Of a stretch of DNA of 64,000 bases, positions 4,140 through 63,962 are shown piece after piece. A program made the position numbers and the translations under genes. The stretch is from Betaproteobacteria bacterium. Lineage in GTDB: Bacteria; Pseudomonadota; Gammaproteobacteria; Burkholderiales; CAIKXV01. Location: the NCBI GenBank assembly GCA_021298815.1, contig JAJTHE010000040.1:3999-67998 (forward strand), read 5' to 3'. The notes beneath the pieces were generated by a model. It was not told where the DNA came from. It searched no databases and saw nothing but the letters and a program-made list of their open reading frames with translations. The stretch's first letter is position 1, and every line of letters begins with the position of its first letter.

Positions 4140-5105
4140 TCAGTCCACCGGCTTGATGCCGGCCTCTTTCGCCAGCCGCACCATGCGCACCGCCTGATCC
4201 TTCATCATCGCAGCCATCTGGGCGGGCGTACCGCCGGCGATGTCCAGCCCGGCGTCGGACAGGCGCGCCCGCGTGTCCTTCTCGGCCAGCACGCGGTTCA
4301 GCTCCGTGTTCAACCGGCCGACGATCGAGGCGGGCGTCGCGGGCGGCACCGCCATGCCCATCCAGCCCTCGAACTCGAAGCCGTCGAGCCCGGCTGCGGC
4401 GATCGTCGGCACCCCGGGCAGCGCGTCCGACGCGCGGCTGCCGGTCACGCCCAGCGCGCGCACCTTGCCGGCACGCACCTGCTGGATCGCCTCGGGGATG
4501 GTCTGGAACATCAGGTCGACCTGGCCGCCGAGCAGGTCGACCATCGCCGGCGCACCACCCTTGTACGGCACGTGGACCATCTTCACCTTCGCCAGGCTGC
4601 CGAACAGCTCGCCCGACATGTGCTGCGAGGATCCGTTGCCGCCGGAACCGTAGTTCAGCACGCCGGGACGGGTGCGTGCCAGTGCGATGAATTCCTTCAC
4701 CGACTTCGCAGGCACCGAGGGATTCACGATCAGCACATTGCCCTGGTAGACGACCATGCCGACCGGCGCGAGGTCCTTCAGCGGGTCGTACGGCATCCGG
4801 GTGTAGATGGCCAGGTTGCCGCCGAGCGCCCCCCCGCTGGACAGCAGGAACGCATAGCCATCCGGCGTGGCGCGTGCGACCACCTCACCGGCGATGTTGC
4901 CGCCGGCGCCCGGGCGGGTCTCGATCACCACCGGCTGCGCGAGCAGTTCCGAAAGCCGCGGCGCGACGATCCGACCCACGAGGTCGACGCTGCCGCCGGC
5001 GGCAAAGCCGATCACCATGCGCACCGGCTTGGTCGGCCAGAACTGGGCCAGCGCAGGGGCAGTCGATGTCGCGGCGACCAGTGCGACAGCCAGCATCCGG
5101 ATCAT
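4140..5105 (-). CDS. Bug/TctC-family periplasmic solute-binding protein
   Basis: 321-aa track ORF: MIRMLAVALVAATSTAPALAQFWPTKPVRMVIGFAAGGSVD. GAGGAG SD precedes ATG 5105. Confidence 0.9.
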   Translation of the reverse strand: MIRMLAVALVAATSTAPALAQFWPTKPVRMVIGFAAGGSVDLVGRIVAPRLSELLAQPVVIETRPGAGGNIAGEVVARATPDGYAFLLSSGGALGGNLAIYTRMPYDPLKDLAPVGMVVYQGNVLIVNPSVPAKSVKEFIALARTRPGVLNYGSGGNGSSQHMSGELFGSLAKVKMVHVPYKGGAPAMVDLLGGQVDLMFQTIPEAIQQVRAGKVRALGVTGSRASDALPGVPTIAAAGLDGFEFEGWMGMAVPPATPASIVGRLNTELNRVLAEKDTRARLSDAGLDIAGGTPAQMAAMMKDQAVRMVRLAKEAGIKPVD

Positions 5106-7704: not shown

Positions 7705-8694
7705 CTACTGCGGCGGGATGCGCGCAGCCTTGACGATCGCGGCATAACGCGCGATGTCCGCCTTGATGAAGGCGCCGAACGACTCGGGGCTGCCGCCGGC
7801 GACGTCCAGCCCGAGGTCGAACAGCCGCGCGCGCAGGTCTGCGCCCAGCATCTTCTGCACTTCGCCGTTCAGGCGCAGCACGATCTCGCGTTGCACCGCA
7901 GCCGGTGCCATCAGGCCGATCCAGCCGCGCAGTTCGTAGCCCTTGAGCCCGGACTCGTCCAGCGTGGGCAGGTCGGGGAACACCTTCGAGCGGTCGCGCG
8001 AGGTGACGGCCAGCGGCCTGACCTTGCCGGCCTTCACCATCGGCACGGACGACGGCGCGGTATCGAACATGAAGTCGATCTGGCCGCCCAGCAGGTCAGC
8101 CATCGCGGGCGCCCCGCCCTTGTACGGCACGTGCACGATCTGCGCCCCGGTCATCATCGCGAACAGCTCGGCCGACATGTGCTGCGTGGCGCCAATGCCC
8201 GACGAGCCGTAGTTGAGCGTGCCGGGCCGCGCGCGCGCAAGCGCGATGAACTCCTTCACCGAGCGCGCCGGCACCGACGGATGCACGATCAGCACGTTCG
8301 GCTGGTTGGCCACCAGCGCGACCGGCGCCAGGTCGCGCAGAGGATCGTACGGCAGCTTTGCATAGACGCTCGGCGCCGAGCTGATCGCCGCCGCACTGCC
8401 CATCAGGAGCGTGTAGCCGTCCGGGGCCGCGCGCACCACGGCGTCGGTGCCGATGATGCCGGCCGCCCCGGCCCGGTTGTCGACCACGAACGGCTGCCCG
8501 AGCGCGTCGGACAGCCGCTGGCCGGTGAGCCGGGCGACGGTGTCGATGCTGCCCCCGGGCGGGAACGCGACGACGATTCGCGTCGGCCGGGACGGCCAGG
8601 CGCCCGGCTGTGCCGGCGCCAGTTGCGGCCAGGCGGCCAGCGCCGCGGCAAGGGCGGCGGCGCTGGCCACGGAAAGGGCAGGAACGGCAGTCAC
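7705..8694 (-). CDS. Bug/TctC-family periplasmic solute-binding protein
   Basis: Track ORF 7705..8913 carries a ~70-aa Arg-rich N-terminus that looks non-genuine. The mature part AWPSRPTRIVVAFPPGGSIDTVARL is typical. No in-frame ATG precedes the signal-like VTAVPALSVASAAALAAALAAWPQLAPAQP, so I place the start at GTG 8694 (TTG 8718 is also possible). The start is uncertain. Confidence 0.75.
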   Translation of the reverse strand: MTAVPALSVASAAALAAALAAWPQLAPAQPGAWPSRPTRIVVAFPPGGSIDTVARLTGQRLSDALGQPFVVDNRAGAAGIIGTDAVVRAAPDGYTLLMGSAAAISSAPSVYAKLPYDPLRDLAPVALVANQPNVLIVHPSVPARSVKEFIALARARPGTLNYGSSGIGATQHMSAELFAMMTGAQIVHVPYKGGAPAMADLLGGQIDFMFDTAPSSVPMVKAGKVRPLAVTSRDRSKVFPDLPTLDESGLKGYELRGWIGLMAPAAVQREIVLRLNGEVQKMLGADLRARLFDLGLDVAGGSPESFGAFIKADIARYAAIVKAARIPPQ

Positions 8695-9045: not shown

Positions 9046-10092
9046 ATGTCCGCTTCCCGCATGTCGTGCAAGACCGCAGCCGCATCCTCCCGCCAGGCGT
9101 CGCGCAACACCCGCCGCCCGCTGCTCGCCGCTTCCGGGGCGCTCGCGGTGCTCGCCGCGGCGCTGCCCGCCATCGCCGCCGCACAGGGGACCCCGTATCC
9201 CAACCGGCCCATCCGGTTCATGGTGCCGTTCGCCGCCGGCGGCGTGTCCGACATCCTCGGCCGCGTGATGGCCGCGAAGATGTCCGAGGTGATCGGCCAG
9301 GCGGTGATCGTCGAGAACCGCGGCGGTGCCGGCGGCACGGTCGGCGCCGACGTGGTGGCGAACGCCAACCCGGACGGCTACATGATCATGCTGTCCAGCC
9401 TGACCACGCAGTCGATCGCGCCGCACATGCTGAAGAAGGTGCCGTACAACACGCAGAGCGCGTTCACGCCGATCGCCGGCGTCGCGCTGTCGCCGAACAT
9501 CATGTCGATCGGCGCCAACCAGCCGATGAAGACGCTGAAGGACGTGATCGCCTTTGCCAAGGGCAACCCGGGCAAGATGAGCTACGGTTCTTCGGGACTG
9601 GGCAGCGTCGGCCACCTCACCGGCGAGATCCTGCGCTCCCTGACCGGGGTCGACATGACCCATGTACCGTTCAAGAGCGCGGGCGTCGCCTACCCGGACG
9701 TGCTCGCCGGCAACATCACCATGGTGATCGACACCCTGCCGTCGGCGCTGCAGCACATCAAGACCGGCACCGTGCGTCCGATCGTGATGCTGTCCCCGAA
9801 GCGCACGCCGCTGCTGCCGGACGTGCAGACCATCACCGAGGCCGGCTATCCCGAGGCCACCCTCAACTTCTGGTCGGGCATCTTCGGGCCGGCCGGGATA
9901 CCGCCGGCCGTGGTCGCGCGCCTGAACGAGGTGATCGTGAAGTCGCTCGCGGCGCAGGACGTGCGCGAGCGGCTGGCGACGCTCGGCGCCGACCCGTGGC
10001 CGGTTTCCGCGGACGAACTCGGCACGCGCGCGCGCGAGGACTTCGTGCGCATGGGCAAGATCATCAAGGCTGCCGGTCTCGGGCCGGAGTGA
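9046..10092 (+). CDS. Bug/TctC-family periplasmic solute-binding protein
   Basis: 348-aa track ORF. A twin-Arg-like n-region (NTRRPLLAASGALAVLAAALPAIAAAQG) is followed by TPYPNRPIRFMVPFAAGGVSD. GAGGAG SD is present. Confidence 0.9.
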   Translation: MSASRMSCKTAAASSRQASRNTRRPLLAASGALAVLAAALPAIAAAQGTPYPNRPIRFMVPFAAGGVSDILGRVMAAKMSEVIGQAVIVENRGGAGGTVGADVVANANPDGYMIMLSSLTTQSIAPHMLKKVPYNTQSAFTPIAGVALSPNIMSIGANQPMKTLKDVIAFAKGNPGKMSYGSSGLGSVGHLTGEILRSLTGVDMTHVPFKSAGVAYPDVLAGNITMVIDTLPSALQHIKTGTVRPIVMLSPKRTPLLPDVQTITEAGYPEATLNFWSGIFGPAGIPPAVVARLNEVIVKSLAAQDVRERLATLGADPWPVSADELGTRAREDFVRMGKIIKAAGLGPE

Positions 10093-23674: not shown

Positions 23675-23751
23675 TTTTCTTTCCTTCTTCCTGATGGGAA
23701 CGGTTTCGGTGAGCAGCGACACGATGCTAAGTCCGACCACGCCGCCGCGGG

Positions 23752-23765
23752 TTGATGTAGGTCAA
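23752..23765. promoter_or_regulatory. FNR/Anr-type box TTGATgtagGTCAA (one mismatch to TTGAT-N4-ATCAA)
   Basis: Read directly in the divergent ompW/aat intergenic region. Its centre is about 85 nt upstream of the ompW ATG. Confidence 0.45.
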
Positions 23766-23833
23766 CCGCCGTTCATCCCGAGGCCTGCGGGCGGGCGCCG
23801 CGGCCAGGCGCGCGGGCCGCGTAGAATCGAGGG

Positions 23834-24622
23834 ATGATCGCGTGGCTCGAAACCGACGATCCGTTCCCGCCGCTGGCCGCCGCGCTGTCGGAACCCGCCG
23901 GGCTGCTCGCGGCCGGCGCCGACCTCTCCGCGCGACGGCTGGTCGATGCCTATGCGCGCGGCATCTTCCCCTGGTTCAACCCGGGCGACCCGATCCTCTG
24001 GTGGAGCCCGGACCCGCGCATGGTGCTGCTGCCGGCGGAACTGCATGTGCGCCGGTCGTTGCGCAAGCGCCTGCGGCAGCAAGGCCACGAGGTGCGCGTG
24101 GATACCGCGTTCCGCGAGGTGATCACCGCCTGCGGCGCGCCGCGCAATGGCCAGAACGGCACCTGGATCACGGCGCAGATGGCCGATGCCTACTGCACGC
24201 TGCATGCGCTGGGCATCGCGCATTCGGTCGAGACCTGGATCGACGGCCGGCTGGCCGGCGGGCTGTACGGCATCGCGCTCGGGCGGGTGTTCTTCGGCGA
24301 GTCTATGTTCACGCGCGTGCCCGATGCGTCGAAGATCGCCTTCGTCCACCTCGTGCGCCAGCTCGAACGATGGGGCTTCGGCCTGATCGACTGCCAGATG
24401 CGCACCGAGCACCTGGCCAGCTTCGGCGCGCGCGAGATACCGCGGGCGGATTTCGCGGCACGGCTCGCGGAGTTGCTACACTACGAAGGGTGGGGTCCCG
24501 GTGGATCCTCGCCCGACCCGGCAGGCGGCCCGGGGAAGCTTCCGTACAGTGCATGGCCGGGCGGCTGCCATCGCATCGATCCGGACCTCACCGACGGCGA
24601 ACCGGCGCCGGACCTGCGCTGA
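23834..24622 (+). CDS. aat: Leucyl/phenylalanyl-tRNA--protein transferase
   Basis: 262-aa track [46 protein letters not shown] and GFGLIDCQ are classic Aat motifs. It has a ~30-aa Pro/Gly-rich C-terminal tail. Confidence 0.9.
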
Positions 24623-24667
24623 CACCACGTTGAACCGACGACGCCCAGAAGCCCAGACGCCAACACG

Positions 24668-25423
24668 ATGACCCGGCTCAACGACTTCCCGATCTCGGTG
24701 CTGCAGTTCTACACCACGGCGCGCTATCCGTGCAGCTACCTGCCCGACCGGATGGCACGGTCGCAGGTCGCCACGCCAAGCCACCTGATCGACAGCGCGG
24801 TCTACAGCGAACTGGTGCGTTCGGGCTTCCGCCGCAGCGGCGCATTCACCTACCGGCCCTACTGCGACAGCTGCCGGGCCTGCGTGCCGGTGCGCATCCT
24901 GGTCGACGCCTTCGAACCCACGCGCGCGCAGAAGCGCGCGTCGGTGCGCCACTCGACGCTGTCTTCCGAACTGCTCGATCTGCGCTATTCGCCGGAGCAC
25001 TACGCGCTCTACCTGCGCTACCAGGCCCTGCGCCATTCCGGCGGCGGCATGGACCACGACAGCCGCGAGCAGTACCGGCACTTCCTGCTCCAGAGCAACA
25101 TCCGTTCGCACCTGGTCGAGTTCCGGGACCCGGAGGCCGCCGGGCGCACGCTGCGCATGGTGAGCATCGTCGACCGGCTGGAAGACGGCCTGTCTTCCGT
25201 GTACACCTTCTTCGAGCCGAACGCGCCGGGCGCGAGCTACGGCACCTACAACATCCTGTGGCAGGTCGACCTCTGCCGCCGCCTCGGGCTGCCCTACCTC
25301 TACCTCGGCTACTGGATCGGCCAGAGCCGGAAGATGGCCTACAAGGTGAACTTCCAGCCGATGGAAGGCCTGATCGACGGTCGCTGGCAGCCGCTGCCGC
25401 GGCATCGCGCCGGCCACCGCTGA
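24668..25423 (+). CDS. bpt: Arginyl/leucyl-tRNA--protein transferase (bacterial ATE-type, Bpt)
   Basis: 251-aa track ORF. CSYLPDR..FRRSG...[16 protein letters not shown] and the C-terminal [12 protein letters not shown] are typical of the family. It is adjacent to aat, as in many proteobacteria. Confidence 0.9.
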
Positions 25424-25454
25424 GCCGCCGGTCCGGCAGGCGCCCCGCCGCACG

Positions 25455-25931
25455 ATGGCTGACCTCCTCCCCGGACGCCAGCCCCTGCCGGTCGCGTACA
25501 TCGACGAATCCGCCTGCATCGGCTGCACGATCTGCATCCAGAAATGCCCGGTCGACGCGATCGTCGGTGCCAGCCGGCGCATGCACACGGTGATCTCCGC
25601 CGAGTGCATCGGCTGCAAGCTGTGCATCGCGCCCTGCCCGGTCGACTGCATCACGATGCGCGATGCGCCCGACGGGCAGCCGCGGCCCGATCCCGCCGTG
25701 GTGCGCGAGCGCCACCGCTTCCGGCAACTGCGGCTGGCACGCGAGCCCGCCGAGCGTGCAGGGCGCCTCGCGGCCAAGGCACAGGCGAAGCTGGCCAGCC
25801 TGGAACAGGCACCGCCCGAAGCGGACACCGATCGCAGGCGCTCGGTGATCGAGCGCGCCCTGGCGCGCGCGCGAGAACGACAGGCCGCGGCCGGCACGCC
25901 GCCCCGCCCCGTTCCGCCCGCTGGCGGCTGA
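25455..25931 (+). CDS. 2x[4Fe-4S] ferredoxin, RnfB-related
   Basis: 158-aa track ORF with two CxxCxxCxxxCP motifs ([24 protein letters not shown]) followed by a charged helical tail. Confidence 0.85.
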
Positions 25932-26036
25932 GCCGGGGACCGCAGCCGCTGCCGGTGCGTCCGGGCGCAACACGGGCCCGGCCACGCATCGTGTAGCCTA
26001 CGCGCATCTTCCGCATCGTTCGCGCCGCCCGCCTTC

Positions 26037-27422
26037 ATGCCACGAAACCGCGCAGTCCCCGCCCACCCTCCCGTTCCTCCCCGTGACGCCAGTGCCGTCC
26101 GCCCCGGGTCAACGGCCGCCACCGCCACGCAGCCGCTGCTGCCATGCACGCTCGGCCCGGGCGGCGGGCTGCGCTTCGCGCGTGGCATCCGGGCGGGACG
26201 CTGGGTGTTCGCCACCGGCCAGCTGGCCGTCGACTTCGAACATGGGGGCATCGCAGCGGACGTGCTGCGCAGCCGCTCGCCGCTGTCGGGCAGGCCCGGC
26301 CACCTGCGCGAGTCCGCGCGCGTGTTCGACCACCTGGAGCAGGTGCTGGCGGCCGGCGGCAGCTCGCTGGCGCGCATCGTGCGCAGCGACCAGTACTTCA
26401 CCAACTGGGCCGCGGTCAGCCACTACCACACGGAGCGCGTGCGGCGGTTCCGTCCGCTGGTGCCGCCGACCACGTCGGTGCTGGTGCCGGGGCTGCTCTA
26501 CCCGGACGCCAGCCTGGACGCGCAGTTCATCGCGCTGGCGCCGGCGTTCGATGCGCCGATCGAGGCGGTCTATCCGCCGGGCCTGCACGTGCCGTCCACG
26601 TCCGGCTTCGCGCCCGTGGTGCGCGCCGGTGACCACGTGTTCATCGCCGGCTTCATGGCCGCGCACCAGCCCGGAGACCTCGGCGGCATCGCACCCGAGG
26701 CGAAGGTCCCCGACGGCCACCTGTGGAAGGGCACGCGCATCAAGCTCGAAGCCGACTACGCGATGAAGCACAAGATCGCCGTCGCGCTGGAGGGCGCCGG
26801 CTCTTCGATCGCATCGATGGTCAAGGCCCAGGTCTACCTGCGCGACATGCACGACCTGCCGGCGTTCAACGAAGTGTGGGAGCGCTGGTTCCCCGACGCG
26901 CGCAGGCGTCCGGCAGTCAGCTACATCCCGACCTCCACGCCCGGCTTCGCCATCGAGGATGCCCGGCTGGAGATCAACGCGATCGGCCTCGTCGATGGCG
27001 CGACCACCCGGCGCCGGAACATCGATGGCGGCTTCCATACGGGCATCGACGGCCAGCCCGGCGCAGTGCTGGCCGGGGACCTACTGCTCTGCTCCGCGCT
27101 GCTCGCCGCGGACGCGGACGGCCCGTTGCCCGGGTGCCTGCCCGATCCGGCGCAGCCCTGCTTCGGTTCAGCCACCGAGGCGCAGGTCGACCATATCGTC
27201 GACCGTGCGCTCGCGCTGTGCGCGGCTGCCGGCACCACCCTGTCCAACATGGCCCGGCTGCAGCTGTTCATGACCGACCTGGGCGAGCTCGATGCGGCAT
27301 GGCGCGCCTTCCAGCGCAGGCTGCCCGGGCTCCACCTGCCGCTGTCCGCGGTCCAGGTGCCGGGACCGCTGCCGGTACCGGGCTGCACCGTGATGGCAGA
27401 CCTCTGGGTCTACGCACCGTGA
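26037..27422 (+). CDS. Triple-domain RidA/YjgF/L-PSP-family protein
   Basis: 461-aa track ORF in which three successive RidA-like segments can be read by eye (see finding). The first ~35 aa are Pro/Ala-rich. There is no obvious SD at ATG 26037, so the start is uncertain. Confidence 0.75.
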   Translation: MPRNRAVPAHPPVPPRDASAVRPGSTAATATQPLLPCTLGPGGGLRFARGIRAGRWVFATGQLAVDFEHGGIAADVLRSRSPLSGRPGHLRESARVFDHLEQVLAAGGSSLARIVRSDQYFTNWAAVSHYHTERVRRFRPLVPPTTSVLVPGLLYPDASLDAQFIALAPAFDAPIEAVYPPGLHVPSTSGFAPVVRAGDHVFIAGFMAAHQPGDLGGIAPEAKVPDGHLWKGTRIKLEADYAMKHKIAVALEGAGSSIASMVKAQVYLRDMHDLPAFNEVWERWFPDARRRPAVSYIPTSTPGFAIEDARLEINAIGLVDGATTRRRNIDGGFHTGIDGQPGAVLAGDLLLCSALLAADADGPLPGCLPDPAQPCFGSATEAQVDHIVDRALALCAAAGTTLSNMARLQLFMTDLGELDAAWRAFQRRLPGLHLPLSAVQVPGPLPVPGCTVMADLWVYAP

Positions 27423-30400
27423 TCGCCGTGCTTCGCAGCGGGCGCCTGCGCCGCATCGCCCTCTGGCTCGCCGGCATCTTCGTGCTGTTGGTACTGGCCG
27501 GGTTCTTCATCGTTCCGCCGGTGGCGAAATCGCTGATCGTCAAGCAGGCCGGCAAGGCCCTGGGCCGCGAGGTATCGATCGAGAAGCTGTCGGTCAATCC
27601 GTTCGCGCTGTCCGCGACCGTATCGGGCTTCAGGCTGTACGAAGCAGGATCGAAGGCGGTGTTCGCCTCGGTCGACGAACTCTACGTGAACATCGAATCG
27701 AGTTCGCTGTGGAACCTCGCGCCGGTGGTGGGCGCGCTGAAGGTCAGCGCACCCAAGCTCAGCATCGTGCGCCTGCCCGGCGAGCGCTTCAACTTCAGCG
27801 ACATCCTCGAGACGCTGGCCAGGCAGCCGAAGCGCGAAGGCAAGGCGCACTTCTCGCTGAACAACATCGAACTGGTCGACGGACGGATCGACATCGACGA
27901 CCGGGTCGAGGAGACCACGCACGCGATCACTGGCATCCGGCTGGGCATTCCGTTCCTGTCCAACCTGCCGGCCAAGGTCGCGCTGAAGGTGACGCCGTCC
28001 TTCGCTGCGAGCTTCAACGGCACCGACATCGAACTGAAGGGCGAGACCGTTCCGTTCCAGGACACGCTCGAGAGCTCGCTGCAGATCTCGCTCGACGACC
28101 TCTCGCTCGGCCGCTACCTGCGCTACGTCCCCGCCACGCTCGGCTTCGACATGCCGACGGGCACGCTGGACAGCGACCTTCGCCTCTACTTCATCCGCGT
28201 CGCCGGCAAGCCGCAGCGCCTGACCCTTTCCGGCACCGCGCGCCTGCGCGATCTCTCGGTGCTCGACCTGGCGAAGGCACCGCTGCTCGCGCTGCCGGTG
28301 CTGGAAGTGGACATCGAGTCGATCGACGTGTTCGCACGCGACGTCGACATCTCCAGGGTCACGATCAACGGCCTGTCGATCGACGCAGTGCGCGGCCGCG
28401 ACCGCCGGCTGAACCTGATGGCGCTGGTGCCGCTGCCGGAGAAGGGGGCGGCCGCGAAGGCGGCCGTGCCGCCCAGGACCGGCGCGACGAGCCCCGGACC
28501 GGCGGCGGCGCCGCTGCGCTTCTCGGTCACCGAGCTCGCGCTGAACGATGGCCGCATCGTGTTCACCGACCGCGCGCTGGCAGCGCCGTTCCGCACCGAA
28601 CTGGCCGATGTCGACGTGTCAGTGAAGGGCTTGACCAACGAACGCCCGGAGCCTGCGCAGGTCACGGCATCCATCCGCACCGGCTTCGGCGAAACGGTGT
28701 CGGCCCAGGCCGCATTCACCCTCGCCCCGGCTGCGGCCCAGGGCACGCTCGAACTCGCCGGCCTGCGTCCACGCAACTATGCGCCCTACTACGGGCCGCT
28801 GGTCCGCATCGAGGTCGACGATGCGAAGGTCGACCTGTCGACCCGGTTCCGGGTCGCCACCAGCGGCGACAGGCTCGATGCGGCGGTGGAGGCACTGACC
28901 GTTTCCGTCGCGGACCTGCGCACCCGTCGCAGCGGCGAGAAGGAACTGCTGCTCAATGTGAAGGCGCTCGCCGTGAGGGGCGTGGACATAGACCTCGCGC
29001 GCCGCGCCGCCACGGTCGGCGAGTTCAGCGCGCGCGACGCGCTCGCGCGGGTCGAACGGGCGAAGGACGGACGGCTGAACCTGGCATCGCTGCTCGCCGA
29101 TCCCGCCAGCGGTGCAGCAGCCACGGCCCGGCCGGCACCCGCGCAGCCGGCCGCGGCCGCGGCGCCCGCCACCGCCCCTGCCGACGCCGCGCCATGGACC
29201 TGGTCGCTGCGCCGCGCGGCGCTCGAGCGCATCAACCTTCGCTTCGACGACCGCGTGCCGGCCGAACCGGTGGCGATCGAGATCTCGGACCTCGCCGCCA
29301 CCGTCGAGGACCTCAACAGCACGAAGGGATCGCGGGCCAAGGCAACGCTGCGCATGGCGATCAACCGCGGCGGCAGCCTGTCGGCCCGGGGCCAGTTCGC
29401 GATCGAGCCGATGGCGGGCAGCTTCGACTTCGACGCACGGTCGATCGCCGTGCTGCCGCTGCAGCCCTACTTCACCGAGCGGCTGAACGTGGTGATCACC
29501 GGCGGCGAGGTCACGGCGAAGGGGTCCCTGAGTGCCGATGCGTCGGCCACGCCGCTGCGCGCCAGCTTCAACGGCGAAGCGAACATCGCCAACTTCGCCG
29601 CCCTCGAGCGGCTGACCAACGAGGAACTGCTGCGCTGGAAGTCGCTGTTCTTCGGCGGGGTCAGCGTGACGGCCGGCCCGACCCAGGTGGCGATCGGCGA
29701 GATCGCGCTGTCCGACTTCTTCGCGCGCATCATCCTGTCCGAGAAGGGCCGCCTCAACCTGCAGGACATCGGGCGGCAGGAAGCGGGCGCAGCACCGGCC
29801 ACCCCTGCCGCCCCTGCGGTGGCGACGGCAGCGGGCACGCCGCCGCCCGTCGCCGTCGCGCGTGCCGCGCAGGCGGCCGCGCCGGCAGCCCCGGCAAGGC
29901 CGGCGGCGGCGGCGCCGTTCCCGGTGAAGATCGGCCGCATCTCGCTGGCCTCGGGCAACATCAACTTCTCCGACCTGTTCGTGCGGCCGAACTTCCGGCT
30001 CAACCTCACCGGCATGACCGGGACCGTGTCCGCGCTCACCTCCGACCCCGGCACCGCCGCGGACATGGAACTGCGTGGCCAGCTCGACGGCAGCGCGCCG
30101 GTGGAGATCACCGGCCGCCTCAATCCGATCGCCACGCCGCTGCTAGTCGACATCAAGGGCACGGTGCGCGGCGCGGAACTGTCCACGCTGTCGCCGTACT
30201 CGACGAAGTACACCGGCTACGGCATCGAGCGCGGTCGCCTGACCCTGAACGTGGCGTACAAGGTCGAGGGGCGCAAGATCGATGCCGAGCACCGGATATT
30301 CCTAGACCAGCTCACCTTCAGCACCGAACGCATCGAGGGCCCCGCGGTGGTCAAGCTGCCGATCCTGTTCGCGGTGCGGCTGCTGCAGAACCGGCGCGGC

Positions 30401-31123
30401 GAGATCGACCTGAACCTGCCGATCAGCGGCACGCTCGACGATCCGAAGTTCCGCATCGGCCCGATCATCTGGCAGGTGGTGGTCAACCTGATCACGCGCG
30501 CGGTGACCGCGCCGTTCACCCTGCTCGCATCGCTGGGCGGCGGCAGCGCAGAGGAGCTGTCCGTGGTCGAGTTCGAACCGGGCCGCGCGGCGCTGTCGGA
30601 GGCCGCGCGCAAGCGCCTGGCCACGCTCGGCAAGGCACTCGCTGACCGGCCGTCGCTGCGGCTGGAGCTCGCCGGCAGCACGGATGCCGAAGCCGATCGC
30701 GAAGGCGTGCGCCGCGTCCAGCTGGAGTCGGCGGTGCGCGCGCAAAAGGCGCGCGAGCTGGCGCGCAAGGGCGAGGCGGTCGTCGGGCTGGATACGGTGA
30801 AGCTCGACCCGAAGGAATACGAGGCCTTCCTGCGCGCCGCCTACCGCGAGGCGAAGTTCCCCAAGCCGCGCAATGCGATCGGGATGCTGCGCGAACTGCC
30901 GGTGCCCGAGATGGAGACCCTGATGCTGACCAACACGGCAGTGACCGCCGACGACCTGCGCGAGCTGGCGGTGGCGCGCGCGCGCGCGGTCGAGACCTAC
31001 CTGGTGAAGGAGGCCGGGCTGTCGCCTGAACGCGTGTTCCTGGTCCAGGGCAAGCAGGCCGCCGAGGCCACCGCTGCGAAGGCGAAGCTGCCCGGCACGC
31101 GCGTGGACCTTGCGATCCGTTGA
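27419..31123 (+). CDS. DUF748-domain giant envelope protein (AsmA-like), N-terminally membrane-anchored
   Basis: Track ORF 26723..31123 trimmed to GTG 27419, which overlaps the upstream stop (GTGA). The product (1234 aa) begins [63 protein letters not shown], a positively charged n-region plus TM and the DUF748 N-terminal pattern. The body is long and beta-rich with Ala/Pro linkers. Confidence 0.8.
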
Positions 31124-31146
31124 ACCCAGGCTGCCGCTCGACGACG

Positions 31147-31881
31147 ATGGAAGAGAAGATCCGGGTTTCCAAGCTGATGGCCGCGCAGGGGCTGTGCTCC
31201 CGGCGCGAGGCCGACGCCTACATCGAGCGCGGCTGGGTCAGCGTCGATGGCGTCGTGGTGAAGGAGCTGGGCACGCGCATCCTCGCGCACCAGAAGATCA
31301 CGCTTTCGCCCGCCGCGACCGCGAGGCAGCACGAGCGAGTCACGGTGCTGCTGAACAAGCCGATCGGCTACGTCTCGGCGCAGGCGGAAGCCGGGTACAG
31401 GCCTGCGGTGGTGCTGGTCGCCGCCGGCAGCCGCTTCGCCGGCGATGCTGCGCCGCTGCGTTTCGAACCGTCGCACCTGCGCGGCCTTGCGCCGGCAGGA
31501 CGGCTGGACATCGACTCGACCGGGCTGCTGGTGCTGACCCAGGACGGGCGCATCGCGCGCCAGCTGATCGGCGCCGACAGTGAGGTCGAGAAGGAGTACC
31601 TGGTGCGGGTCGAGGGCCGCCTGCCCGGCGACGGCATGGCGCTGCTCAACCATGGCCTGAGCCTGGATGGCGTGCAGCTGAAGCCCGCGGAGGTCGGCTG
31701 GCAGAACGATGACCAGCTCCGCTTCGTGCTGCGGGAGGGCCGCAAGCGGCAGATCCGGCGCATGTGCGAAGCCGTGGGGTTGCGCGTCACCGGGCTGAAG
31801 CGGGTGCGCATCGGCCGGGTGCGACTGAGCGACCTTCCGGTCGGCCAGTGGCGCTACCTCGCCCCCGGCGAGCGGTTCTGA
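31147..31881 (+). CDS. Pseudouridine synthase, RsuA/RluF-type with S4 domain
   Basis: Track ORF 31120..31881, with ATG 31147 preferred. It has the S4 domain [31 protein letters not shown] and the catalytic motif [17 protein letters not shown]. Confidence 0.85.
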
Positions 31882-31973
31882 GCCCTTCGGTGGCCGGCCG
31901 CCGGGCCGGACAGGCAGCGCCGCCGCTATAATCCGCGTCCCGGTCGGTCGGACCGCAAGCGGAGCAGACAACG

Positions 31974-33185
31974 ATGGCACTTCCCCTCGAAGGAGTGAAG
32001 GTGGTCGACCTGACCAACGTGCTGGCAGGGCCTTTCTGCACGATGACCATGTCCGACCTGGGTGCGGAAGTGCTCAAGGTCGAGAACTTCCCGGAGGGCG
32101 ACCTTTCGCGCCGGCTGTCGCCGAAGATCAACGACGAGAGCTACTGCTTCGCGATGGTCAACCGGAACAAGCGCAGCATCGGCCTCGACCTGAAGAGCCC
32201 GCGCGGCAAGGAGGTGTTCATGAAACTCGCCGCCGGCGCGGACGTGATCCTCGAGAACATGCGCCCGGACGCGAAGTTCCACATGGGCGTCGACTACGAG
32301 TCGGTGAAGAAGGTCAACGAGAAGATCATCTACGCCTCGATCTCCGGCTTCGGCCAGACCGGGCCCTATGCGAAGAAGGGCGGCTACGACATCGTCGCCC
32401 AGGGCATGACCGGCATCATGCGCATGACCGGCGACCAGGGCGGCCGCCCAGCCAAGGTCGGCATCGCGATGAACGACGTGGCCGGCGGCATCACCGCCCT
32501 GTACGCGATCCTCGCTGCCTACATCCACCGCCTGCGCACCGGCGAGGGCCAGTACCTCGAGACCTCGCTGGTCGATGCCGGCCTCGCCTGGATGATGTGG
32601 GAGTCGGCGGCGTTCTTCGGCGCCGGCGAGGTCGCGATGGCCAATGGCACGCGCCATCGACGGTCGGCGCCCTATCAGGCCTTCCGCACCGCAGATGGCT
32701 ACGTGACGGTCGGCGCCAACAGCGAGAAGATGTGGGCGAGCTTCTGCAACGACGTGCTCGGGCGCCCGGAGATGCTGCAGGACGAACGCTTCGAGGGCCT
32801 GCAGAACCGCCTCGCGAACGTCGACGCGCTGCAGGACGAGATCGAGAAGGTGCTGACCACGCAGCCCACGGCGCACTGGGTGCCGCTGCTGGACAAGGCG
32901 GCTGTGCCCGGGGGACCGGTCTACACCTTCGACGAGACCGTGGAAGACCCGCACATCAAGGCGCGCGAGATGTTCTTCGACGTCGAGCATCCGATCATCG
33001 GCAAGATGAAGAACATCGGCTACCCGGTGAAGTTCTCGCGCACGCCGCAGCAGTTCAGGTCCGCCGCGCCCTGGCTCGGGCAACACACCACCGACGTGCT
33101 GGGCGAGCTCGGCTACACGGCGGCGCAGATCGAATCGCTGTTCGGCGATTCGGTGGTGTTCGACAAGTACCGCAAGCCCGCCTGA
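31974..33185 (+). CDS. Family III CoA-transferase (CaiB/BaiF)
   Basis: 403-aa track ORF. LEGVKVVDLTNVLAGPFCTMTMSDLGAEVLKVE and the internal GYD(I/V)V..G motif are typical of the family. Confidence 0.9.
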   Translation: MALPLEGVKVVDLTNVLAGPFCTMTMSDLGAEVLKVENFPEGDLSRRLSPKINDESYCFAMVNRNKRSIGLDLKSPRGKEVFMKLAAGADVILENMRPDAKFHMGVDYESVKKVNEKIIYASISGFGQTGPYAKKGGYDIVAQGMTGIMRMTGDQGGRPAKVGIAMNDVAGGITALYAILAAYIHRLRTGEGQYLETSLVDAGLAWMMWESAAFFGAGEVAMANGTRHRRSAPYQAFRTADGYVTVGANSEKMWASFCNDVLGRPEMLQDERFEGLQNRLANVDALQDEIEKVLTTQPTAHWVPLLDKAAVPGGPVYTFDETVEDPHIKAREMFFDVEHPIIGKMKNIGYPVKFSRTPQQFRSAAPWLGQHTTDVLGELGYTAAQIESLFGDSVVFDKYRKPA

Positions 33186-50691: not shown

Positions 50692-51648
50692 TCACTCGGC
50701 AGCGATGCCCGCGTTGCGGATCAGCGTGCCCCAGTAGGACAGTTCCTGGGCGATGGTACGGGCGAAGGCCGCGGGATCCTGGTACTGCGCGAAAGCCCCC
50801 TGCGAATCGGCCTTTTCCCGGAATTCCCTGCCCTCGACGATGCGCCGGACCTCCTCCGACAGCCGCCTGACCACGTCCGACGGCATGCCAGCGGGGCCGA
50901 GCAGGCCGAACCAGGACGCCACTTCATATTTCGGGAAGCCGGCCTCGGCTGCGGTCGGCACGTTCGGCATCGAAGGATGCCGGTTGCGCGCCGCATAGGC
51001 GATCGCACGCAGCTTGCCCGCCTGTACCTGCTGGATCACGCCGGGCGGCGTGGTGATGAAGATGTCGATGTTGCCGCCCATCAGGTCGAGCACCGCCGGC
51101 CCGCTGCCCTTGTACGGCACATGGATCATCTTCCCGCCGACCTGCTGCTCGAGGATCTCGCCGGCCAGGTGCTGGATCGATCCCGGCCCGGAGGAACCGT
51201 AGCTGACCTTGCCCGGGTTGGCACGGATCAGCTCGGCCAGTTCCTTCATCGTGGCCACCTTCGTCGACGGCCCCACGGCGATCACCTGCGGTGCGTAAAG
51301 CGCCATCGCGATCGGCGTGAAGTCCTTCACCGGGTCCCACTTCAGGCCCTTGAACAGGTGCGGATTGCCGACATGGAAGCCCGAGAACTGCAGCAGCAGC
51401 GTATGCCCGTCGGGTTTTGCCCGTGCGACCATCTCGGTGCCGATGTTGCCGGACGCGCCGCCGCGATTCTCGACGATCACCGGCTGGCCGAGTGCCTTCG
51501 CCAGCGGCTCCTGCAGCAGGCGGGCGGTGAAGTCGGTGGAACCGCCGGGAACGGTGGCGACGATCATCGTGACCGGCCGGGACGGGAACGATTGCGCCCA
51601 GGCAGCCGTCGACAGGCCCAGCAGCAGGGCGGCGATCATCCGTTTCAT
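50692..51648 (-). CDS. Bug/TctC-family periplasmic solute-binding protein
   Basis: 319-aa track ORF (50692..51651); ATG 51648 is preferred because GGAGGAG SD lies 6 nt upstream. [39 protein letters not shown]. Confidence 0.9.
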
Positions 51649-58825: not shown

Positions 58826-59875
58826 TCAATCGGCCTTCAGGCCGAGCTGCTTCACTACCTTCGCATAGCGTTCGACGTCACGGCGCAGTACCTTGTCGAA
58901 CTCGGCGGCCGTCATCGGCGTCGGCTCGATCGCCAGCGCGTTCATGCGGTCGCGCACATCGGCGGCGTTGAGCGCGCGGTTGATCTCGGCATTGAGGCGG
59001 CCGACTACCGGCGCTGGCGTGCCGGCGGGCGCGAGGAAGGCGATCCAGGTGTAGTCGGCGAACCCGGGATAGCCAAGCTCGGCCACCGTCGGCACGTCAG
59101 GCAGGGCCGCGGAGCGCTTCGCGCTCGTCACCGCGATCGGCCGGATCTTTCCCGCCTGCGACAGCGGCACCGCCGGTGGCATCGAGGTGCTGCCGATCGG
59201 CACCTGTCCGCCGAGCACCGCGGTGACCGCGGCAGCCGGGGTGTGCGGCACGTGCGTGATGTCGACGTTGTTGAGCTGCCGGAACAGCACTTCGGCGGCC
59301 AGGTGGGTCGTCGTGCCGGTGCCCGACGACGCATAGCTCAGGCGTTCGCTGCGGGCCAGCGCGAGCAGCTCCTTCAGGCTGCTGGCCTTGACCGAGGGAT
59401 GCACGAACAGGATGTTCGGGGTGAGCGTCGCCATCGCGACCGGCGCGAAATCGCGGATCGCGAACCCGGGGCGTGCGAACAGACTCACGTTCACTGCGAA
59501 CGCGACGCTGGTGCCGAGCAGCACATGGCCATCGGGTGCCGACTTCGCGACGATCTGCGCGCCGATGTTGCCGCCGGCGCCGCCCCGGTTGTCGATCACC
59601 AACGGCTGGCCGAACGCCTCGGCGAGCCGCGGCTGCACCAGCCGGGCGATGGTGTCGGTGGTGGCCCCGGGGGGGAATGCCACCACCAGCCGCAACGGCC
59701 GCGAGGGGAACGCCTGGGCCTGGGCCTGGGCCTGGGCCTGGGCCTGCGCCTGGACCTGGGCCTGGACCTGGGCCTGCGCCTGCGCCTGGGGCGCGATGAT
59801 CGCCCCGGCCAGCGGCAGGACGATGGCGACGGCACGGGCCGAGGCCCGGATCATCGCTGCGGATTTCGAATGCAT
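58826..59875 (-). CDS. Bug/TctC-family periplasmic solute-binding protein with an (Ala/Val-Gln)n linker after the signal peptide
   Basis: Track ORF 58826..60502 trimmed to ATG 59875 (GGAGGAG SD). MHSKSAAMIRASARAVAIVLPLAGAIIAPQAQAQAQVQAQVQAQAQAQAQAQAQAFPSRPLRLVVAFPPGATTD. Confidence 0.88.
   Translation of the reverse strand: MHSKSAAMIRASARAVAIVLPLAGAIIAPQAQAQAQVQAQVQAQAQAQAQAQAQAFPSRPLRLVVAFPPGATTDTIARLVQPRLAEAFGQPLVIDNRGGAGGNIGAQIVAKSAPDGHVLLGTSVAFAVNVSLFARPGFAIRDFAPVAMATLTPNILFVHPSVKASSLKELLALARSERLSYASSGTGTTTHLAAEVLFRQLNNVDITHVPHTPAAAVTAVLGGQVPIGSTSMPPAVPLSQAGKIRPIAVTSAKRSAALPDVPTVAELGYPGFADYTWIAFLAPAGTPAPVVGRLNAEINRALNAADVRDRMNALAIEPTPMTAAEFDKVLRRDVERYAKVVKQLGLKAD
59712..59789. repeat. 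Hexanucleotide tandem repeat, 13 units of GCCTGG (variants GCCTGC, ACCTGG), inside the coding sequence
   Basis: Counted directly. It is in frame and encodes the AQ/VQ dipeptide run of the TctC precursor. Confidence 0.9.
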
Positions 59876-62882: not shown

Positions 62883-63962
62883 TCAATCCGGACGGATGCC
62901 CGCTTCGCGGGCCACCTTGCGCCAGAACAGGATCTCGTCGCGCACGATGCGGGTGAACTCCTCCGGCGTGGTGCCTGCAGGCTCCGCGCCTTCGGCGGCA
63001 AGACGCTCGCGCATCTCGGCCGTCTGCAGCACCTTGACCGTCTCGGCGTTCAGGCGGTCGATGATCGGCTTCGGCGTCCCGCCCGGCGCGAACAGCCCCC
63101 ACCACAGCACGGCCGCATACCCCGGCACGCCGGACTCGGCGATCGTCGGCACGTCGGGTACGAACGGCGAACGCACCGGCGTCGACACGGCCAGCGCCCG
63201 CACCCGTCCCGACTTCACCTGCGGCATCACGTTCGGGATGCCCGACAGCAGGAACTGGATCTGGCCGCCCATCAGGTCGATGAGCGCGGGGCCGATACCC
63301 TTGTACGGCACGTGCACCGTCTGCACCTTCGCCATCCGGTTTAGCACCTCGGTGGCGAGATGGTTGACCCCACCGCTGCCGGAGGATCCGTAGTTGAGCG
63401 AACCCGGCTTCGCGCGCGCCAGCGCGATCAGTTCCTGCATCGTCTTCGCCGGGAACTCGGCGGACACCGTGATCATCAGCGCCCCCATGCCAAGCCGGGT
63501 CACCGGCGCGATGTCGCGGAACGGATCGAACGGCACCTTCGACTGGATCGCCACGTTGGTGGTGAACGAGGTCGAGTGGATCATCAGGTTGTAGCCGTCC
63601 GGCGGCGCCTTCGCGACGATGCCCGCCCCGAGCAGCCCGCCCGCGCCAGGACGGTTGTCGATCAGGACCGGCTGCCCCAGCGACTCGCTCAGCCGCTGGC
63701 CGACGATGCGTCCGAAGATGTCGTTGCTGCCGCCGGGCGTGAACGGCACGACGAAGCGCAGCGGACGGTTCGGGTACGGCTGGGTCGGGGCGGCCTGTGC
63801 GGACGCAGGCGCGGCGGGCAGCAGGTACAGCGCGGCCCCTGCGCAGGCGGTGGACAGGGCGCAGGCGACGGACAGCACAACCCGGGACGCCGGCGGGCGG
63901 GCAGCCGGCACGGCACGCAGGCCATGCGCGCCGGGCGCGGATGCAACGTGGCGGGGGATCAT
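62883..63962 (-). CDS. Bug/TctC-family periplasmic solute-binding protein
   Basis: 359-aa track ORF with AAGGAG SD before ATG 63962. A long n-region and signal segment are followed by PYPNRPLRFVVPFTPGGSND. Confidence 0.88.
   Translation of the reverse strand: MIPRHVASAPGAHGLRAVPAARPPASRVVLSVACALSTACAGAALYLLPAAPASAQAAPTQPYPNRPLRFVVPFTPGGSNDIFGRIVGQRLSESLGQPVLIDNRPGAGGLLGAGIVAKAPPDGYNLMIHSTSFTTNVAIQSKVPFDPFRDIAPVTRLGMGALMITVSAEFPAKTMQELIALARAKPGSLNYGSSGSGGVNHLATEVLNRMAKVQTVHVPYKGIGPALIDLMGGQIQFLLSGIPNVMPQVKSGRVRALAVSTPVRSPFVPDVPTIAESGVPGYAAVLWWGLFAPGGTPKPIIDRLNAETVKVLQTAEMRERLAAEGAEPAGTTPEEFTRIVRDEILFWRKVAREAGIRPD

Follow-up and report, generated by a model that had tools for sequence, protein, structure and literature searches.

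Does a single polypeptide in this DNA stand in for the three subunits of a RidA trimer and, if so, does it still carry out RidA chemistry? The question is raised by an ORF on the forward strand of the 64,000-nt stretch of DNA analysed here (the window). The initial annotation described this ORF as three successive RidA segments in one chain that could fold into a trimer-like body with three non-equivalent sites, called such an architecture unusual for the family, and took the overlap of its stop with the start of a DUF748 gene as a hint of a functional link. The features on which the discussion rests are the following.

25455..25931 (+): 2x[4Fe-4S] ferredoxin gene, 105 nt upstream of the start of the three-domain Rid gene (Pfam Fer4_21/Fer4; synteny)
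26037..27422 (+): gene for a 461-aa three-domain Rid protein (3x-Rid) (ORF and translation, PF01042)
26037..26126 (+): N-terminal Pro/Ala-rich extension, aa 1-30 (pLDDT 53-65)
26127..26537 (+): Rid domain 1, aa 31-167 (Pfam 31.5 bits when scanned alone; 2csl, E 1.9e-8)
26559..26990 (+): Rid domain 2, aa 175-318, closest of the three to RidA (Pfam 47.1 bits; hhalign to YjgF)
26664..26735 (+): conserved loop that is inserted in domain 2 after strand 3 and before helix 1, PGDLGGIAPEAKVPDGHLWKG (near-invariant residues; pLDDT 77-84)
27012..27413 (+): Rid domain 3, aa 326-459, the most diverged (6l8p, E 7.9e-10; hhalign 98.3-98.8%; model topology)
27419..27422 (+): GTGA overlap, with the downstream start on the stop of the 3x-Rid gene (read from the sequence; frame of ORF 26723..31123)
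27419..31123 (+): gene whose 1234-aa product is a DUF748 protein, AsmA-like at its N-terminus (Pfam)

The 3x-Rid ORF comprises 461 codons from an ATG start, and its GC3 of 0.90 is typical of coding sequence in this window of 70% GC. The identical protein is present in NCBI as "RidA family protein" under MCE2947445.1 (405 aa) and MFO0522029.1 (461 aa). The N-terminal extension is probably disordered, judging from its pLDDT in the predicted model; it begins with an MPRxR start that is common to orthologues at 82-83% identity, and it is missing from the ~430-aa paralogues. No hydrophobic signal-peptide core was found in the N-terminus, and a secreted protein was rejected on this ground. A promoter and terminator scan of 23700-32000 gave no match, a result that is uninformative at 70% GC.

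PF01042, the Endoribonuclease L-PSP/Rid profile, matched the whole protein in three stretches (E 4.7e-23, 81.9 bits; cut-off, 27.3 bits). When the segments were scanned alone, segment 1 (aa 46-166; 31.5 bits, E 1.9e-7) and segment 2 (aa 187-316; 47.1 bits, E 2.9e-12) stayed above this cut-off, whereas segment 3 (12.5 bits, E 0.15) fell below it, and the count of three therefore needed extra evidence for domain 3. This came from a 16-sequence profile of the domain, which matched PDB chains of the RidA family (6l8p, E 7.9e-10; 2dyy, 5.5e-8; 3k0t, 6.9e-8), and from hhalign, in which the domain profiles matched each other with probabilities of 98.5% (domains 1 and 2), 98.3% (domains 1 and 3), and 98.8% (domains 2 and 3), at E-values of 1e-14 to 5e-17 and 17-26% identity. 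The profile of domain 1 matched the RidA chain 2csl (E 1.9e-8). Judging from such high probabilities at such low identity, the three domains are homologous and strongly diverged. The loop insertion of domain 2, which provided the search pattern [GE]GIAPEA[KRQ][VM], has near-invariant residues at G213, G217-A222, P225, G227, L229, W230, and G232. Both by profile and by predicted fold, the protein belongs to the Rid superfamily (YjgF/YER057c/UK114, PF01042). The initial annotation has proved sound in these respects: the peptide strings that it quoted were all found in the translation of the ORF, its boundaries (aa 45-165, 185-320, and 335-461) agree with the Pfam envelopes and with the strand/helix pattern of the model, and the strong divergence that it noted is borne out by the hhalign identities, with domains 1 and 2 passing Pfam alone and domain 3 recognized by profile only.

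AlphaFold2, supplied with an alignment of 62 full-length homologues (A1), predicted one compact three-lobed body (mean pLDDT 92.2, pTM 0.90), in which pLDDT dropped below 85 only in residues 1-30, in one linker, and in the loop of domain 2. The RidA order of strands and helices (beta-alpha-beta-alpha-beta-beta) occurs three times in this model, at residues ~31-167, 175-318, and 326-459. The top Foldseek matches in the PDB were the single-chain chorismatases 4bps, 5ag3, and 5a3k (E 1.2e-10 over ~390 columns; TM 0.60-0.62 on the target, rmsd 5.3-5.8 Å, 10% identity), and the next were single RidA subunits, each on one lobe, with TM of 0.83-0.89. One chorismatase, FkbO, is said to have been described by Juneja and colleagues (Juneja et al., in 2014) as a monomer whose pseudo-threefold symmetry resembles the RidA trimer. 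The high pTM and the chorismatase match, taken together with this reported symmetry, support the view that the 3x-Rid chain would form a covalent pseudo-trimer, the trimer-like packing being read from the pTM and a moderate whole-chain match rather than from a superposition on a RidA trimer. The proposal of a trimer-like body in one chain is thus supported by the predicted structure and by the Foldseek matches, those of the single lobes and the moderate one of the whole chain.

Whether the clefts of such a body could work as RidA sites depends on the pocket residues. In TdcF, seven of these are invariant, namely Y17, G31, N56, N88, R105, P114, and E120, and the last extends across the subunit interface (PMC1884159). 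Imine hydrolysis requires Arg105 (Niehaus et al., 2015; PMC4433059). These positions were mapped onto the three domains by HMMER and by hhalign to YjgF; for domain 3, the Arg position was taken from the HMMER profile alignments, the global hhalign alignment to YjgF having misaligned its C-terminal third. The YjgF sequence used for mapping carries all seven numbered pocket residues. At the Arg105 position, Thr145-Thr146-Ser147 were found in domain 1, Val294 in domain 2, and Leu436/Ser437 in domain 3, and the Glu120 position of domain 3 is occupied by Asp455. Domain 2 keeps four of the seven pocket residues, as F191 (Y17), G205 (G31), N278 (N88), and E312 (E120), and domains 1 and 3 keep fewer than four. 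The invariant set of seven that marks the RidA subfamily is therefore incomplete throughout, its Arg105 is absent from each of the three domains, and the protein scored 57 bits with the NCBIfam model TIGR00004 (Rid family detoxifying hydrolase), for which the cut-off is 106.25 bits. By these marks the protein falls outside the RidA subfamily. Since no domain has an Arg105 equivalent, a canonical role as a 2-aminoacrylate/imine deaminase appears unlikely. The search for the conserved Arg of imine-hydrolysing RidA, which the initial annotation had recommended, accordingly came out negative (T145/T146, V294, and L436 in the three domains), and its expectation of three non-equivalent sites fits the residues at the Arg105 and Glu120 positions, which differ between the domains. 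A single-sequence alignment had pointed to R289 of a local ARRR as the RidA arginine; this candidate was rejected because the family alignment puts V294 at that position, and the RRR stretch behind the reading is an insertion present only in some close orthologues.

How did a Rid protein come to have no such arginine at all? The first search returned 1079 matches, nearly all of 420-465 aa and with >90% of the query covered, and, with clustering at 50% identity, the 119 representatives found at E<1e-30 are colinear with the window protein over aa ~45-461, down to 27% identity. At least 382 3x-Rid loci were found in species-representative genomes, mostly of uncultured Burkholderiales and often with several paralogues per genome; distant branches contain proteins labelled Actinomycetota, Chloroflexi, and Nitrospinota, and no relative was found by tblastn at E<=1e-10 among 72,556 plasmids. 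The arginine was counted in 318 full-length family members gathered in this analysis, which are a biased sample. Its equivalent is present in all three domains of 66 of them (in motifs such as PPAR-T; 25-30% identity to the window protein), in domain 2 only of 95, and in no domain of 154, including the window protein, with three members showing other patterns. Consistent with this, 159 of 188 distant family members (<40% identity) have Arg at position 294, and the clade of the window protein has Val or Thr there. On the simplest reading of these sequences, a Rid domain that bore the Arg would have been triplicated once, long ago, and its sites would then have been lost step by step; in the aligned series the window protein is at the extreme without any Arg.

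The fused architecture itself is already published, and it occurs commonly in metagenomes. The name "3x-RidA" was used for presumed covalently linked trimers by Niehaus et al. (2015; BMC Genomics 16:382; PMC4433059), the only paper on fused or tandem Rid proteins that we found in the literature. The window protein is a further uncharacterised member of this group, and the view that its architecture is unusual for the family has to be given up in the face of a name dating from 2015 and of the numbers of representatives and loci given above.

Loss of the arginine could mean that catalysis was lost altogether. Invariance was judged over the 62 sequences of A1, which reach down to 45% identity. 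R116, D118, Q119, R134, and T146 are invariant in domain 1, W230, K263, E312, and N314 in domain 2, and C395 and D455 in domain 3; D273 is a further invariant polar residue of the alignment. In terms of sequence conservation, this speaks for a ligand site that has been remodelled but kept, and against decay.

The gene neighbourhood gives two quite different pictures for the window gene and its paralogues. The downstream protein matched DUF748 with 1064.8 bits, AsmA at its N-terminus (E 3e-16), and OmpA in a C-terminal stretch (E 5e-8), and it has a membrane anchor. Its GTG start at 27419 overlaps the TGA stop of the 3x-Rid gene at 27420-27422, exactly the overlap that had been noticed from the sequence. 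A DUF748 gene directly follows the 3x-Rid gene in all 10 orthologue loci (69-83% identity), the closest ones, which share the conserved block aat-bpt-fdx-3xRid-DUF748. The synteny in these 10 loci extends over a larger block, which includes a P-type ATPase and OmpW before aat and, beyond DUF748, genes for a pseudouridine synthase, a family III CoA-transferase, nth, and DUF1841. In the window, aat, bpt, and the ferredoxin gene lie upstream of the 3x-Rid gene, and the last four genes of this list lie downstream of it. The adjacency of DUF748 in them is uninformative because the entire block is syntenic. No DUF748 gene was found near the 3x-Rid gene in 70 paralogue loci (42-53% identity). The survey of orthologues and their neighbours thus upholds the DUF748 neighbour for the orthologues (10/10) and not for the paralogues (0/70), and the functional link that had been suggested does not follow from an adjacency that exists only inside a syntenic orthologue block.

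The paralogues are found beside uptake genes instead. TctC, a transporter receptor, accounts for 42 of 119 immediate neighbours by Pfam, and a TctC homologue lies within 400 bp of the 3x-Rid gene in 57 of 70 paralogue loci by tblastn, whereas the remainder of these loci has about one TctC per 11 kb. Part of this adjacency is background, because these genomes abound in TctC genes (seven in the window). Individual paralogue contigs contain tctCBA-3xRid operons, tandem 3x-Rid pairs, TRAP transporters, and GntR/FCD regulators, as well as C-N hydrolases or dehydrogenases (FmdA_AmdA, Polysacc_deac_1, M20, M24, and 2-Hacid_dh), and 11 of 107 second neighbours are single-domain PF14588 YjgF-like proteins. 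Because the paralogues adjoin transporter genes, their context points to a role of the 3x-Rid family in the processing of carboxylates or amino-acid-like compounds that the cell has taken up. The window gene has no TctC neighbour, in spite of the seven TctC genes in the window, and the paralogue context is therefore a weak guide to the function of this copy.

Several explanations have to be weighed against this evidence. The database labels ("RidA family protein" and "enamine deaminase RidA") imply an ordinary RidA-type enamine/imine deaminase, merely fused, that guards PLP enzymes or clears the imines formed by amine oxidases. We consider this unlikely: a PF01042 score well above the cut-off, distant colinear relatives with the Arg in one or all domains, and paralogue contexts that sometimes include amine oxidase, aminotransferase, amidase, or M20/M24 hydrolase genes would fit it, but the residue that is missing here from every domain is essential (PMC4433059), the TIGR00004 score is far below its cut-off, and the Arg-less Rid4-7 subfamilies are presumed not to be imine deaminases. 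The opposite extreme, a catalytically dead pseudo-enzyme whose three RidA sites have all degenerated and which persists as a stable scaffold or sensor, strikes us as quite unlikely. Polar residues are invariant over 62 sequences, charged ones in the pocket-forming strands included, and an Arg-less clade with several paralogues per genome beside uptake genes fits substrate diversification. In favour of a dead enzyme are the stepwise loss of Arg in the lineage, first down to domain 2 alone and then altogether, and the departure of the window copy from the transporter-linked context.

A dedicated two-gene module, in which the 3x-Rid protein would serve the downstream DUF748/AsmA-like envelope protein as a partner, for example in cytoplasmic ligand binding or regulation, is in our opinion very unlikely. 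It has in its favour the 4-nt GTGA overlap, which implies co-transcription and possibly translational coupling, and an adjacency that persists in 10 of 10 orthologue loci although the DUF748 identity falls to 45%; it is set back by the synteny of the entire block in those loci, by the complete absence of DUF748 from the 70 paralogue loci, and by the pairing of a 3x-Rid protein that has no signal peptide with a membrane-anchored DUF748 protein. Judging from the whole-chain structural matches, in which chorismatases come out best, one might also think of a chorismatase-like enzyme of the FkbO/Hyg5/XanB2 type, with chorismate or some similar enolpyruvyl compound as its substrate, the more so as D455 stands where Hyg5 has its essential C-terminal Glu-334, a likeness by position only. 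This we regard as extremely improbable. The identity is 10%, the family profile retrieved no chorismatase chain even at E<=10, PF01042 was the only Pfam match and no chorismatase-specific one appeared, the surroundings contain nothing of polyketide, xanthomonadin, or ubiquinone metabolism, and nothing in the sequence or context of the window protein points to chorismate as its substrate.

We therefore favour, as the likely explanation, a cytoplasmic single-chain Rid pseudo-trimer with remodelled, non-Arg105 chemistry. In this view, an ancestral Rid domain whose strand 3 and helix 1 were joined by a long loop would have been triplicated, and the three copies would be arranged around a pseudo-threefold axis like three RidA subunits, resulting in three inter-domain clefts that are no longer equivalent. 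Because polar residues are invariant, we infer that the protein still binds a small molecule or acts as an enzyme. It would use one or two remodelled clefts, most likely one with domain 2, rather than three RidA sites; its substrate may be a carboxylate-type metabolite, and its chemistry would be other than the Arg105-dependent hydrolysis of 2-iminopropanoate or 2-aminoacrylate. Across the family, uptake genes of the TctC/TTT and TRAP types and genes for C-N hydrolases accompany 3x-Rid, which suggests catabolism of imported organic or amino acids. The window copy seems to have left this transporter context and would now reside in a housekeeping block, co-oriented with the DUF748/AsmA-like gene, with which it is probably co-translated; a joint function of the two is unsupported. 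A bolder version goes further, making the Arg-less clade a new type of enzyme that reuses the fused Rid scaffold as the chorismatases did, with a single asymmetric site between domains 1 and 2 (R116, D118, Q119, R134, and T146 together with E312, N314, K263, and W230), and in the orthologue group an enzyme recruited as a partner of the AsmA-like DUF748 envelope protein, to which it would be translationally coupled. Taken as a whole, we hold this combination to be distinctly unlikely.

What the locus means lies largely in the family. When a homotrimer is fused into one chain, its three interface sites become free to diverge, and the 3x-Rid family records this process. The 318 members, with three, one, or no Arg, form a useful natural series for the passage from symmetric to asymmetric oligomeric enzymes, and the label "RidA family protein / enamine deaminase" is probably functionally wrong for the Arg-less clade. 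Of greatest interest among the by-products are the stepwise disappearance of the catalytic Arg across a fused family and the strong TctC linkage of its Arg-less clade. For the window itself this carries little weight, the architecture being published, the protein annotated, and the DUF748 link a matter of local synteny only.

Among known systems, the 3x-RidA proteins come closest (Niehaus et al., 2015). The window protein has the architecture by which they were defined, three tandem Rid domains in one polypeptide of ~400-460 aa, and it is colinear with relatives that bear the RidA motif PAR[ST] in all three domains (66 of 318). The published example, EF_0115 of Enterococcus faecalis (PMC4433059), can be likened to it by described architecture only. 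The window protein differs from 3x-RidA in having no Arg105 in any domain and a score below the TIGR00004 cut-off, and its clade is found largely in uncultured Burkholderiales and is mostly TctC-linked. In the absence of the catalytic Arg and the retention of an acidic pocket residue, the window protein resembles Rid4-Rid7, Arg-less subfamilies that occur mainly in Proteobacteria and are presumed not to be imine deaminases (PMC4433059). However, Rid4-Rid7 are single-domain homotrimers, whereas 3x-Rid is fused, and the Arg position is occupied by Trp in Rid4 and Rid7 and by Thr/Ser, Val/Thr, and Leu/Ile in the clade of the window protein.

The chorismatases FkbO, Hyg5, and XanB2 (4BPS, 5AG3, 5A3K) are also single chains with a YjgF-like domain (PMC3949708), and the predicted model shares their three-lobed single-chain fold. 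At ~10% identity, a sequence relationship to the window protein is not detectable; they are also ~130 residues shorter, and their genomic context differs. Homotrimeric RidA/YjgF/TdcF (1QU9, 2UYN, 2CSL), in contrast, are related to the 3x-Rid domains by sequence homology as well as by the RidA fold predicted for each of them, and domain 2 keeps the equivalents of Y17, G31, N88, and E120. The equivalents of Arg105, N56, and P114 are missing in the window protein, and in each of its domains a long insertion separates strand 3 from helix 1. RidA, YjgF, and TdcF are built from three identical subunits, whereas in 3x-Rid one chain takes their place, and its clefts are therefore non-equivalent.

The arginine of the RidA PAR[ST] motif is present in all three domains of P0165, P0185, P0189, P0277, and 62 other proteins of the family alignment, which are distant colinear relatives (25–30% identity to the window protein), and is kept in domain 2 only in another 95 family members. 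Judging from these aligned residues, one fused family shows a graded series of predicted site loss. Arg291 is conserved among the closest orthologues, those with 60% identity or more; it lies two residues ahead of the strand whose Val294 occupies the RidA Arg105 position. Paralogues have Ile, Val, or Pro at position 291. Arg291 is a candidate that may stand in for the lost arginine:

26901–26912, + strand, RRRP (aa 289–292), containing Arg291

NCBI record MCE2947445.1, the same exact protein, is only 405 aa long and starts at Val57 (26037–26207 affected), so that the earliest of the conserved strands, with the LLPV motif, G50, A53, G54, and W56, are lost. Because MFO0522029.1 (NCBI) is the 461-aa version and orthologues at 82–83% identity have the MPRxR start in common, sequence comparison supports ATG 26037 as the true start.

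Around the paralogues, a trio recurs in which the triple-Rid gene is followed by tctC and a gene for a ~160-aa single-domain Rid-like protein (PF14588, YjgF_endoribonc; 11 of 107 second neighbors of triple-Rid genes). Pairs of diverged triple-Rid paralogues also share one cluster in three loci, separated by one gene or a tctCBA operon.

L024, L029 (8001–11025, example), L030, L031, L044, L045, L058, L061, L064, L068, L072: trio
L081, 4681–8314: paralogue pair
L085, 7001–14730: paralogue pair
L087, 7001–10709: paralogue pair, FmdA_AmdA amidase between the two

For some MAGs with the gene, from lakes and soil, the record title reads "Bordetella parapertussis" or "uncultured Streptomycetaceae/Streptomyces" (loci L003, L026, L031, L045, L061 and L025, L036, L053); these titles are probably automatic mislabels of uncultured Burkholderiales.

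Seven TctC/Bug-type solute-receptor homologues lie within the 64-kb window, typical for Burkholderiales with expanded tripartite tricarboxylate transporter receptors, and none of the seven adjoins the triple-Rid gene:

1534–2442, − strand
4152–5099, − strand
7723–8628, − strand
9196–10080, + strand
50704–51636, − strand
58829–59710, − strand
62886–63782, − strand

Near the triple-Rid gene lie the genes below, with a ferredoxin gene next after the aat-bpt pair; the aat-bpt-ferredoxin order is kept in every orthologous locus reaching that far.

23834–25423, aat, for a Leu/Phe-tRNA-protein transferase, next to bpt, for a homologue of Arg-tRNA-protein transferase
27419–31123, + strand, DUF748 protein gene

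In the DUF748 protein, the N-terminus is AsmA-like (aa 10–168), the C-terminus gives a weak OmpA-like match (aa 1171–1212), and there are long Ala/Pro-rich linkers; the protein resembles the cell-envelope bridge proteins of the AsmA-like type.
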